Source: Eledone cirrhosa
Lineage: Eukaryota
Assembly (NCBI GenBank): GCA_964016885.1
Contig: OZ024740.1
Coordinates: forward strand, 57,908,001-57,972,000
Length of the DNA stretch: 64,000 nt
Direction: 5' to 3'
Shown here: positions 47,361 to 60,925 of the stretch, piece by piece
How the letters are laid out: every line of letters begins with the position of its first letter
Position numbering within the stretch: the first letter of the stretch is position 1
Program-made: the position numbers and the translations under genes
The notes under the pieces: generated by a model
The model's input: the letters and a program-made list of their open reading frames with translations, nothing else
What the model was told of the DNA's origin: nothing
The model's database searches: none

Positions 47361-47460
47361 TATAGGAAAAGAGTCTTTTCCTATTACCCACTCTACTAAC
47401 CTAAGTATCGAGTACTCTGGTGCGTTATGGTCCACCTAGTTTCTTACCTCACTTTCTTTG

Positions 47461-47520
<60 letters not shown>

Positions 47521-47522
47521 AC

Positions 47523-47565
<43 letters not shown>
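47002..47565. repeat. Compound (TA)n microsatellite hosting short element tails
   Basis: Direct inspection. Similar tracts at 28268-28415, 43005-43330, 48867-49326, 52725-52855 and 60410-60645. Confidence 0.95.
47362..47462 (+). mobile_element. Short PLE-type tail with an 11-bp fold-back at its 5' end
   Basis: ATAGGAAAAGA-G-TCTTTTCCTAT then TACCCACTCTACT...GCGTTATGGTCCACC. Homologous to 52975-53058 and 60850-60925. Confidence 0.7.
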
Positions 47566-47568
<3 letters not shown>

Positions 47569-48866
47569 TCATCATCATCATCATCATCACCGTTTTAAGT
47601 CCGTTCTTCCACGCTAGCATGGGTTAGACGGGTTGTCCTGTTGTGTGCAGTGTCTGGTCGGCTGACCATGCCTTGCTCATACAGGAACTGATCTGGCTTG
47701 ATTTCTACAGCTGGATGCCCTTCCTAACACCAACCTCATTTACAGTGAGTGCTGGGTGCTTTTTCGTGGCGCCTACACGTCCACTTTACAGTGTGGGCTG
47801 GGTGCTTTTTTGCCGTGGCACCTCCACGACCACCTTGCGGTGGGGGGTGTGGGGGCATATTGTCTATATGCTTCAGCTTGTACCCATGGGAGGTCGGGTA
47901 CTCTGTATTACTGCGTGACGCCAGAAGTCACGGTCGTGTGTCATTGTCTTTGAGAGGTGTAGTTGGGTAAGGTCGGCTTTTATCACCTCATCCCAGGTCA
48001 TCTTGGGTCTCCCCACTCCGCGGTTTCCATCAACTTCTAGTGCTCTGCACCTTTTTATGCAGCTGTCATTCCTTCATACGCATCACATGTCCATACCAGC
48101 GCAACCGCCTCTCCTGCACACAGCATTTGATTCCTCTTATGCTCAGTCTCTCTCTCAATGCACTTATGCTTTGTCGTTCACGTATATTGCTGTTACACAT
48201 CCATCGGAGCATGCAGGCTTCGTTTCTCTCTAATCTACGTAAGTCTTCCACCTTCAGCGCCCAGGTCTCACTACCATGCAACATCGCTGTTCGGATACAC
48301 GCATCATACAGTCTGCCTTTCATTCTGAGGGAGAAGCCTTTTGCAGCTAGCAGTGGTAGTAGTTACCTAAACTTCTTCCATCCCGTTCTTACCCTAGTTA
48401 TTGTACTTTCTGAACACCCACCTCCGTTGCTAATTCGGTCACCTAGGTAGCAGAAGCTGTCTACTGTTTCTACAGGGCCCTCCCAGAGATTGGTGGTACT
48501 TGTTTCCTGTGGCTGTTTGCTGCTTGCTGTTTCAGCACAGCTGCTGCATGTGAATCCTACATTCTTAATTAAGCTTCCTGAGATCCCGCTACATCTCTTG
48601 TGTACCCATTATTTGCATTTGGGGCAGAGAATGGAGTTCCTACCTACACCTTTCCTACATACTGAGCAAGGCCATTTCCCTGAGGGGATCTGGGTTCTGT
48701 TTTCTCGTCTACTTACAAGGACCTTAGTCTTTGTCATGTTGACTTTGAGGCCCTTTCTCTCTAGTCCCTGCTTCCAGGTTTGGAATTTATTCTCTAGTTC
48801 TACCATAGATTCAGCTATGAGTGCGAGGTCATCAGCATACAGGAGTTCCCATGGGCATCCGGTCTT
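47565..48866 (-). mobile_element. RTE LINE subfamily B, 5' end at [13 protein letters not shown]
   Basis: [32 protein letters not shown], 3'UTR and (GAT)n tail. Confidence 0.93.
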
Positions 48867-48892
48867 ATATATATATATGTATATATATGTAT

Positions 48893-48926
<34 letters not shown>

Positions 48927-48956
48927 GTATATATATGTATGTATATATATATGTAT

Positions 48957-49058
48957 ATCATCATCATCATCATCATCATCAACGTTTAACGTCCGTGTTC
49001 CACGCTTGCATGGGTTTGGACGGGGGTAGTCCCACTTGAGGCAAGAGTGATTGTCTTG

Positions 49059-49061
<3 letters not shown>
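48957..49061 (-). mobile_element. RTE subfamily A 3' tip
   Basis: Essentially identical to 23757-23859. Confidence 0.9.
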
Positions 49062-49105
<44 letters not shown>

Positions 49106-49122
49106 GTATATATATATATGTA

Positions 49123-49171
<49 letters not shown>

Positions 49172-49195
49172 GGATATATACATATATATATATAC

Positions 49196-57536: not shown

Positions 57537-57598
57537 CTTCTGATTTGTCTTGCGGAAAGTGTATTTTTTTTTTTTTTTTTTCAGTCGCCGAAATAGCT

Positions 57599-57878
57599 TG
57601 TGGTTAGAAAAAGCTATCTCACTTACCGCTTTTCACAGGCGCCGCTAAATCCCACTGCAGGTACTCCTCTTCTACGTGCGTCCTACTGCTTGACACCGGG
57701 AGCTGCCCAAAACTCGCGTCCACACCGTGTGCTGGTCACCACTAGAGAGAGGCTCTCTGCTGGCCCTTCCGGTCGAGCATCCTTCCGGCCAAAGACCCCT
57801 TCCGGTCGAGCACTCCCCACACCCTTCCGGTCAAGCACTCCCCCGCCTCCGGCCACCGCACGCCACACCATACCCACA
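57599..57878 (-). repeat. 5' LTR
   Basis: Direct repeat of 53660-53939. Confidence 0.96.
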
Positions 57879-57987
57879 ATTATCATATCAACTAATAACC
57901 ACATATAATCATCTAATTTTTCATTTTAAATATATAAGCAGGGAAAAAGCGGACGTAAAATGAAATGATGATGTATATATATATATA

Positions 57988-58320
57988 TCATCATCATCAT
58001 CATCATTTCATTTTACGTCCACTTTTTCCCCGCTTGCAAGGGAACTGACTCTGGCGGGATTTCTACAGCTGGATGCCCTTCCCAACACTAACTTCATTTA
58101 CAGTGAGTGCTGCGTGCTTTTCTTTTTTCCGTGGCACCTCCACGACCACTTTGCAGTGGAATGATATGGATCCCAGTCCTTATCATCTCATTTCTACAGT
58201 TGAGTAAACTGGAGCAATGTGAAATAAAGTGTCTTGCTCAAGGAAACAACACCTCACCCGGTCTGAGAATTGAACTCACAACCTTTCGATTGCAAGGCCA
58301 ATGCTCTAACCACTAAGCCA
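57988..58320 (-). mobile_element. Composite tRNA-derived SINE (family 4), full head
   Basis: TGGCTTAGTGG box A and GAGTTCAATTC box B; collinear with 50508-50830. Confidence 0.88.
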
Positions 58321-58499
58321 TATATATATATATATATATATAAACGCACACATACATATATAATCATACACAGACACATAAACACACACACACACACATT
58401 TATACATACACACACATACATATAAACACACATTCATATACACACCCACTTTACTGTGAAACCCAATATTAAAGTATTTTTCTTCCCGCCTATATTTAT

Positions 58500-59945
58500 T
58501 GTGTCCCTCTCTCTCAAAATATTACCCCTCTCTCACTAAAACATTCTCACCCTCTCTACATACCGCTGAATGCTTCACTCTCTCTCACTAGACCAACTTT
58601 CTTCCTTTCTCACTAAACCACCAAACTCTCTCCCCCTCTCAATATCCCACTACATACCTCACTCTCTCTTACTCTCACAATAAACCACAAAAATGTACCA
58701 CTACATACTTCACTCTATCATTCTGACAATTCTCCCTCTCTCCCCAAACCACCAAACTCACTGCCACTCTCGTAATTCCCACTCTCTCACTAGACCACCA
58801 AACTTTCTCCCCCCCTCACTATATTCCACTACATGCTTCACTCTCTATCGCTTTCAAAATTAACCCTCTCTTACAACACCACTAAACTCTCTGCCTCACT
58901 TTTATCCCAAGACATACATCACTCTCTCTCACAATTCGCCCTCTCTCATTAGAACACCAAATTCTCTCCCTCTTTCTATATTCCACTACATAACTCACTC
59001 TCTTCCATGCACTTAATTCCCCCCTCTCTCTAAGCCAACAAATTCTCTCCTGCTCTCTATATCCCACTACATACCTCACTCTCTTAATTCCCCTTCTGTC
59101 ACTAGCCCAACAAATTCTATCCCTCTCTCTATATCTCACTATATACCTCACTCCCTTAATTTCCCCTCTCTCATTAAACGAACCAACTCCCTCCCCCTCT
59201 CTCTATCCTACTACATACCTCACTCTCACTAGACCACCAATCTATCTCCCCATCTCTATATCCCACTACATACTTCTCTCTCTCTCACAGTATCCCCCCC
59301 CTCTCACTAGACCACCAAATCCTTTCCCTCTATATATTCCGCTACATAAATCACTCTATTTCAGTCTCTTAATTCCACCTCTTTCACTAAACCAACAAAT
59401 AACTTCCCGCTCTCAATATCCCAATACATACCTCACTCTCGCTCACAATTCCCCCTCTCTCACTATACGACCAAATTCTCTCCCCCTCTCTATATTCCAC
59501 TACATACATCACTATTTCTCACTCTCACAATATCCCCTCTCTCACCAGGCCAATAAAGTTTCTCCTCTCTATATCCCACTACATTCTATACTCTCTCACA
59601 AGACTACCAAATTCCCCCCTCTCTATATTCCACTACATATCTTACTCTCTTTCACTCTCTTAATTCCCCCTCTCTCACTAAACCAACAAACACTCTCCCG
59701 CTCTCTATATCTTACTGCATAGAACACACTTTCTCGCAATTGTCCCTCTCTCACTAGACCACCAAATTCTCTCCCCTCTATATTCCACTACATACTTCAC
59801 TCTCTTAATTCTCACTCTCTCACTAAACCAACAAATTCTCTCCCGCTCTCTATATTCCACTAAATACGTCACCCCCTCTTACTCTCACAATACCCTCTCA
59901 CTAAACCAACAAATTCTCTCTTCCTCTCTATATCTCACTACAATA
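58500..59945. repeat. Diverged pyrimidine-rich minisatellite, ~55-75-bp unit
   Basis: Recurring CTCTCACTA(G/A)ACCA(C/A)CAAATTCTCTCCC..CTCTATAT(T/C)CCACTACATACCTCACT, about 20 copies. Confidence 0.88.
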
Positions 59946-60219
59946 TTTTTTACTTTGAAACAACAAATGTTTTCATCTTCTGTAAAGAACGACAAAGTTC
60001 TCCATCCCATTCTCCACCTTTTGAACCCCTGGTGTGTGGGGGTGATTTTCGGGGGGGGGGGGGGGGGGGGCTTTTGTTGAATTATTTGACAGGAGTTAAA
60101 AATGTGTTGGTGGAGGGTGGGGTTGTGGTGTTGGTAGTAGTGCGGTGGTGGTTGTAGTGGTCGTGTTGTTGGTGGTGTTTGCTTATTTGAATCTATCTAT
60201 CTATCTATCCATCAAACTA

Positions 60220-60400
60220 TCTATATACTACTAAAACTCTATGATTGTGTGCTTGTCTGTAATTTAATATAGCCAAAACGGCGCATAATGGTGAAATACT
60301 TTGAAAGGAAGTTGCCCCTGAAATGGGAATACAAATGGAATAAAACAATTTTCGCGGAAATCGGATATGGTGTTTTTCCGGATACCTTCATAAATAGAGA
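60220..60400 (+). mobile_element. Possible Helitron 5' end fragment
   Basis: A|TCTATATACTACTAAAACTC...TGTGTGCTTGTCTG resembles non-autonomous Helitron 5' termini. Confidence 0.45.
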
Positions 60401-60427
60401 GAGAGAGAAAGATACACACACACACAC

Positions 60428-60524
<97 letters not shown>

Positions 60525-60543
60525 TGTGTGTGTGTGTACACAC

Positions 60544-60601
<58 letters not shown>

Positions 60602-60849
60602 ATACACACACAGATATATATATATTTATATATATATATATATATGGGCCTTCCAATTTCATTTTACATTATATACATGTCTGTATATTCTAATTATTTA
60701 AAAATTATCAAGTAGATTTTAAAAAAAACATTTTTAGACGAACGTTAACCATCAAGAAATATAGAGGTACCTACTTATATATATGTATATCTGTAAGAAA
60801 ATTTAAAATTTAATCTATTTAGTATATATATATATATATATATATATAT

Positions 60850-60925
60850 TACCCACTCTACTACGCCAAGTATCGAGTACTCTGGTGGGTTATGGTCCAC
60901 CTGGTATTTTAGCAACCCTATCTGA
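60850..60925 (+). mobile_element. Tail-only copy of the 47362/52855 family
   Basis: (TA)n|TACCCACTCTACTACGCCAAGTATCGAGTACTCTGGTGGGTTATGGTCCACCTGG. Confidence 0.75.

Follow-up and report, generated by a model that had tools for sequence, protein, structure and literature searches.

Sequence-defined outer and inner ends in head-to-head Penelope-like element insertions of Eledone cirrhosa

We examined a window of 64,000 nucleotides from Eledone cirrhosa (GenBank assembly GCA_964016885.1, contig OZ024740.1, positions 57,908,001 to 57,972,000, forward strand), in which three short copies of a Penelope-like element (PLE) lie in (TA)n. We denoted the first base of the tail of each copy as B, the last base of the adjoining arm as -1, and the far end of the tail as E. 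Copy 2 is a perfect palindrome (52855-52979) with 62-nt arms flanking one base, and is followed by a tail. It consists of a B-started arm on the minus strand (52855..52915, element positions -1 to -61, inverted), a junction with an untemplated C on each arm and one central base (52916..52918), an E-started arm on the plus strand (52919..52979, positions -61 to -1), and a plus-strand tail of 80 nt that spans B to E (52980..53059). The C on each arm is likely to be a cap copied onto both complementary DNAs (cDNAs), and the E-started arm contains the 3′ half of a type I hammerhead ribozyme whose cut is predicted from the fold to fall after 52959. The (TA)n target flanks copy 2 at 52718..52857 on the left and 53057-53083 on the right. 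Copy 1, of an older subfamily, has short head-to-head arms of 11 nt, both with their outer limit at B (palindrome 47362..47384), and a plus-strand tail from B to E (47385..47464), with (TA)n on the left at 47002..47364 and on the right at 47462-47566. Copy 3 is a tail only on the plus strand (60850..60925), from a subfamily with a divergent tail end, with (TA)n on its left at 60823..60849.

A preliminary description of this DNA had noted an exact breakpoint common to the three copies, and the tail does begin at 52980, 47385, and 60850 with the same tail start; copy 3 is a tail without an arm, and all three copies sit in (TA)n, both as described. The length of 62 nt for the arms of copy 2 was confirmed, but one of the 62 bases is the untemplated C. 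The three were also said to be one family, which is true in that all are copies of the same PLE, but they represent three different subfamilies, with identities to the master copy (L122, see below) of 141/141 for the E-started arm and tail of copy 2, 69/80 for the tail of copy 1, and 51/56 for copy 3. The three copies are ordinary dead stubs of a known class.

The autonomous partner that the preliminary description called for was looked for and found. The master L122 carries an intact open reading frame (ORF) of 719 amino acids with a reverse transcriptase (RT) and, at the C terminus, a GIY-YIG endonuclease (EN), its ATG lies ~90 nt past E, and tandem arrays have a unit of 3.54 kb. Long copies run from the tail upstream via ~1 kb of noncoding sequence into the GIY-YIG ORF. 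The L122 protein has RWR at 37, DKT at 117, the RT core motifs, a CxCx5C linker at 572, and the EN at 591-700 with VIY...YIG and one cysteine between VIY and YIG; it has CxxC at 670, CxH at 698, and no CCHH. Among the best 120 of 2,054 homologs, the Hydra motifs each occur in 107-119, and the GIY-YIG tyrosine motif in 98. The L122 ORF gave no match in a Pfam search and none in a search of solved structures; its homologs P0001 and P0032 match GIY-YIG. We thus have a single ORF with RT and GIY-YIG EN, tandem or partial tandem pseudo-long terminal repeats (pseudo-LTRs), an inverted 5′ copy, and a one-sided tail, which are the characters of an EN-bearing (EN+) PLE. Judged by its motifs, the autonomous 3.54-kb element to which the stubs belong is a PLE with the signature of the Hydra clade. 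The placement follows the motif definition in section 11 of Craig et al. (2021, PMC8557442). Shared with that clade are the C-terminal EN, RW(K/R), DKT, the CxCx5C linker, the lack of CCHH, CxxC and CxH around the amino acids E and N, the hammerhead, and the (TA)n targets. The differences are the unit of 3.54 kb against “generally <3 kb”, which is a tendency and not a rule, and the length of the tail, 80 nt here and 30-40 nt in the description of PLEs (PMC8557442). Naiad/Chlamys, with an N-terminal EN and no canonical hammerhead, was rejected because the EN is C-terminal here and a hammerhead fold is present, and a miniature inverted-repeat transposable element or fold-back DNA transposon was rejected because the tail is one-sided and the centre varies from copy to copy. 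In L028 and L041 the copy seemed to run on beyond the tail, but this stretch proved to be a separate short repeat (two matches), and a non-A base after the tail, used as a query for the master, retrieved target variants instead.

Arrays of at least four 3.54-kb units occur at C1:91476610-91487237 and C1:437200355-437210948; in both, one side has a B end and the other an inverted E end. Either the rolling copying of a circular RNA or a long read-through RNA could account for such arrays. Further PLE-type ORFs near sampled sites comprise a frame of 714 amino acids that has a DKG motif, plus two others related to the master (L123:- 1305-3446; L127:+ 8949-9899; L130:+ 1797-2471).

We investigated the outer ends across the 3.0-Gb genome by pattern matches instead of similarity search, since words of the tail are too common, and our samples were the first matches on the largest contig, which are biased toward young, exact copies. 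The breakpoint 15-mer had 48,248 exact matches against 10 for its reversed control, so that the shared breakpoint is not due to chance. Outer arm ends were called by self-comparison; BLAST to one reference under-called them in diverged subfamilies. Among the first 100 matches of the 15-mer, 74 had an inverted match upstream to their own last 20 bases, ending exactly at B in 68. With a body anchor that is blind to both ends (54,367 matches, first 100 strands scored), 54 strands were without tail, 49 of them ending exactly at B (scored by script), and 46 were tail-bearing, 43 of them ending at E (by eye). B and E are exactly 80 nt apart, each ends in TAT, and each abuts (TA)n. The tail-only class is rare (~370 copies, from 418 matches with 89 of the first 100 at B by hand), and among these 100 the start is at B in 89 and at another TAT within the tail in 11, an eightfold preference. 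Raw reads from a further two samples contain loose ends that lead into (TA)n, at B in 3,176 and 2,772 reads and at E in 8,198 and 8,915 reads, together with opposite-strand joints at -61/-60; both B and E ends are present in contigs of another organism. The fixed, sequence-defined end-point proposed in the preliminary description is therefore borne out genome-wide, with outer ends piled up at B and not scattered. Its position, given as about 80 nt inside the 3′ end, needs revision: B does lie 80 nt from E, but the master runs on beyond E into the ORF, so that E is internal and not the RNA 3′ end, and both starts lie in the 5′ leader. A 9-bp stem predicted at L122:3915-4013 (z = -1.94) would join the start of the tail to bases 15-25 nt past E and so place B near E; we treat it as no more than a lead, and there was no covariation of the stem among nine partly overlapping masters.

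Each insertion combines the two outer ends. Of 50 palindromes picked by their centres, 48 had a B end paired with an E end, the other two being broken local duplicates, and very short palindromes picked in the same way had one of each in 40/41 (the 41 are those examined among the 54 insertions listed). The same pairing was seen in long ORF-bearing copies and in tandem arrays. The arms of one copy differ by 1-6 bases in 26/50 copies, and the same subfamily signature is on both arms in 39/41, against a shuffled mean of 17.

The inner ends are sequence-defined too, not random, a point that had gone unnoticed in the preliminary description. Two-thirds of the arms (99/148) stop within -54 to -67 and only seven extend further, and raw-read depth drops ~tenfold upstream of the same zone. 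The A of TCAGT or TTAGT occupies position -61, and that of TCATT position -65; both contexts are initiator-like. The base after the -61 stop is C in 18 cases, T in three, and absent in two. Cap copying is known for other retroelements, and an arm stop at -61/-65 with an untemplated C is likely to mark a capped transcription start, to judge from the sequence at the stop. In very short palindromes 55/82 arms stop at -20, with both arms doing so in 24/41 copies, although the pattern used is blind to stops shorter than -19. Copies with both arms at -20 have 0-16 untemplated bases between the arms, the first being A in 24, T in 15, and C in five, and the contrast in untemplated C vs. T between the -61 and -20 stops is significant (P = 1.3e-4). 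Both arms nearly always share the same inner stop, with ~8,500 copies having both at -56 or beyond and ~180-220 having both at -20.

The -20 stop coincides with a predicted ribozyme bond. Upstream of B lies a type I hammerhead of the U3-A8 core variant with a palindromic loop III, and its cut is predicted between -21 and -20 at a GUC site. The minimum-energy fold is a three-way junction with an unpaired core, as in type I hammerheads, which have three stems around the conserved core and a UH cleavage site. The -20 stop would then be an uncapped end left at that bond, and the accumulation of short arms there would be an indirect trace of self-cleavage by the predicted hammerhead. An RNA starting at -61 would have only half of the hammerhead.

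The two arms are not equal in length, the B arm being longer in 23 vs. seven tail-anchored copies (P = 0.005) and in 21 vs. eight mixed copies (P = 0.024). For six of the 54 B arms the partner is tail-only, a partial tail that neither overlaps the arm nor shares sequence with it (by eye). L242/L243 is one duplicated copy and three “tail-only” flags were short-body partners, which our counts exclude or state. Blunt or 1-nt palindrome centres are common. Microhomology is seen at junctions, as are short inserts, some of which are copies of arm sequence close by; both are suggestive of host end-joining. The partial tandems L135, L140, L142, and L160 have their joints within -57 to -64 or at -20, where jumps between templates at RNA ends would be expected to put them. 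Short head-to-tail leader tandems (L201, i.e., L134/L135; L140; L142; L153; L160) join sequence ~60-110 nt past E to -57 to -64 or -20 of the next copy. A run of three T just upstream of -61 has grown to 4-19 T at the junctions of L026, L031, L218, and C1:18731498, which suggests stuttering of a polymerase or RT at the RNA 5′ end.

We consider it likely that head-to-head stubs arise from two target-primed cDNAs, one started at B and one at E, that are end-joined, with one RNA probably serving as template for both; the RNA ends and the order of events we infer from the DNA patterns above. The GIY-YIG domain would cut both strands of (TA)n, and each target 3′ end would pair with one of two UAU in the RNA leader, that of B or that of E, which are separated by 80 nt. 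Both cDNAs would extend to the physical 5′ end of the RNA. In most cases that end would be a capped start (-61 or -65), and the cDNAs would gain an extra C; in some it would be the hammerhead cut (-20), and the extra base would be A or T. The E-started cDNA would have to displace the B-started cDNA on the same RNA and would stall more often, and host end-joining would then fuse the 3′ ends of the cDNAs via microhomology or short inserts. The longer B arms, the non-overlapping partners, and the tail-only starts at B all fit an E cDNA passing a B cDNA on one RNA. With both starts so close to its 5′ end, normal mRNA would give only stubs of ≤200 bp, and full-length copies would need read-through or circular RNA. 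A fuller version, for which we see about an even chance, is obligate double priming: two fixed starts on one RNA would be used per double-strand cut and the junction would be the true RNA 5′ end; the promoter would lie inside the hammerhead loop, so that normal mRNA is stub-only and uncleavable, and read-through RNA would be cut by the ribozyme in vivo and then serve as template. The preliminary description had proposed two cDNA starts joined head to head, which the fixed B and E, one of each per insertion, support; it had placed one start at the tail end and one internally, and there are two starts, but both are internal, in the 5′ leader, E not being the RNA 3′ end. Its term “fold-back” for the arm is probably the wrong word, as the arms behave as two separate cDNAs.

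Several points weigh against two cDNAs primed on one RNA. The RNA start site, the cap, and the ribozyme cut are read from DNA only; the untemplated C could come from terminal-transferase activity instead of a copied cap, and at -61 neither A nor G can be scored as untemplated. Rfam gave no hammerhead match on the master (and only simple-repeat noise on the window), and the folding z-score of the hammerhead is only -0.64. Exceptions to the pairing are two E/E copies (L024, L105) and B/B calls in 2/50, 1/41, and 1/30. The shortage of mixed long/-20 copies, with at most ~81 found vs. ~2,500 expected under independent arms (-20 fraction by hand), counts in favour of the paired cDNAs, but the estimate compares patterns of differing stringency. 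Later deletion of palindrome centres could also yield the asymmetry and the tail-only partners, target-site duplications are unreadable in (TA)n, and the subfamily signatures are discordant between arms in 2/41 copies.

Such discordance would fit a variant of the two-primer scheme in which a protein dimer carried two RNAs, each templating one cDNA, with the arms agreeing through a shared RNA 5′ end, e.g., by dimeric hammerhead cleavage. This has a small but real chance of being right, as the anole PLE protein is predicted to be a dimer (PMC11167929), PLE hammerheads have been proposed to act as dimers (PMC4209133), and loop III is palindromic here. Neither the more frequent shortness of the E arm nor the preference of tail-only stops for B over other TAT (89 vs. 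11) is among its predictions, and the capped and cut RNAs would have to stay apart, since the -61 RNA has half a hammerhead. The asymmetry of the arms also bears on a single cDNA, started at E, that is extended to the RNA 5′ end and then folds back to serve as its own template, with B as a stop or an endonuclease cut joining the target and the unequal arms due to later deletion. In that case the B arm should never be longer, yet it was in 23 vs. seven copies; blunt or 1-nt centres are not primable, a loop of three or more bases being needed, and non-overlapping arm pairs exist. Arm concordance and shared variants would come automatically with a folded-back cDNA, the tail has been ascribed to endonuclease resolution (PMC8557442), and B contains ATT, a cut motif reported for the anole enzyme; for that same enzyme both tail boundaries are RT starts (PMC11167929), and we judge the single cDNA quite improbable.

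The published hypothesis for head-to-head PLE palindromes, in which self-priming of an antisense transcript forms the palindrome before integration (PMC3846280), shares with the folded-back cDNA a misfit to non-overlapping arms and 0-1 nt centres. The inner ends, moreover, fall on landmarks of the sense RNA, namely the -20 hammerhead cut and the initiator-like starts that have an extra C, and we regard antisense self-priming as very improbable for this family. That the palindromes are artefacts of assembly or chimeric reads has next to no probability: the arms of half of the copies differ in sequence as given above, the tail is on one arm only, and the same ends recur in raw reads of other samples and in contigs of another organism. 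The point in its favour is that read support at the window copy stops short of spanning the centre and both flanks, the reduced-representation reads at copy 2 mostly ending at 52908 and 52926 and rarely crossing the palindrome centre; these two ends are probably a restriction site.

Twin priming of L1 has a variable second start and gives pieces without overlap, whereas here both starts are fixed and the cDNAs overlap, which gives a palindrome. Common to the two is that both cut ends prime cDNA and that the products are joined head to head (10.1101/2024.12.14.628481). An inverted copy with a one-sided tail is standard for PLEs (PMC8557442, PMC3846280, PMC2377424), and the insertion units in these papers resemble ours in the head-to-head inverted copy, one-sided tail, partial tandems, and palindromic junction. 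They differ in their inner ends, which are at defined positions (-61/-65, -20) here and random 5′ truncations there, and the mechanisms preferred in those papers are self-priming of antisense RNA or resolution by an endonuclease. It is already known that a PLE tail can lie between two internal RT starts: in vitro, the anole PLE (PAc/Poseidon, Anolis; Frangieh et al. 2024, PMC11167929) has two such starts that delimit the tail, and both strands of its AT-rich target are cut and extended, as we propose here. That element belongs to another clade; its starts are inside the ORF and ours in the leader, its starts are described as not homologous to the target and here TAT is common to both, and no RNA ends were found at its hammerhead cut (PMC11167929). 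In Penelope of D. virilis the start site lies within the pseudo-LTR, upstream of the tail (PMC2377424). The hammerhead is like the minimal type I ribozymes of PLEs (Cervera and de la Pena 2014, PMC4209133) in its U3-A8 core, short stem I, long stem II, and palindromic loop III; it differs in that the long loop II appears to contain the transcription start and in that cleavage at the predicted bond has a genomic footprint. We found no report of a one-B-one-E rule, of cap-marked inner ends, or of ends at the hammerhead cut, in a search that was thin on subscription journals and older Penelope reviews.

The architecture is thus ordinary for PLEs, and the junctions are unusually precise, testable evidence on integration, the family offering natural reaction products by the tens of thousands, their ends defined to the base. 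If two cDNAs are primed at B and E, every event should use each of the two starts once, a single RNA should template both cDNAs, and the RNA should have a capped start at -61/-65 and be cut by the ribozyme at -20; the intact L122 ORF suits the published in vitro assay. If double priming is obligate, tens of thousands of stubs would map the PLE start site and ribozyme activity and would settle the origin of inverted pseudo-LTRs; the origin of head-to-head inverted ends and hammerhead cutting in vivo are named as open questions in PMC8557442 (section 15), PMC3846280, and PMC11167929.

Other elements are visible in the window. A second hammerhead family at 49845-50471 is noncoding and retrozyme-like, with a U3-A8 core, a 316-bp tandem unit, and 704 pattern matches. 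Its insertions, too, are head to head, only one side bearing a tail (~26-30 nt), and the family has two fixed end sites, of which head-to-head pairs carry one each in the clear cases among 30 loci (by eye). A third head-to-head inverted element lies in (TA)n at 49328-49835, with arms within 49462-49828; one arm ends at TAT and the other runs on for ~130 nt, which suggests a longer one-sided tail. Positions 1-13883 of the window are a satellite array of ~260 copies of a 52-bp unit.

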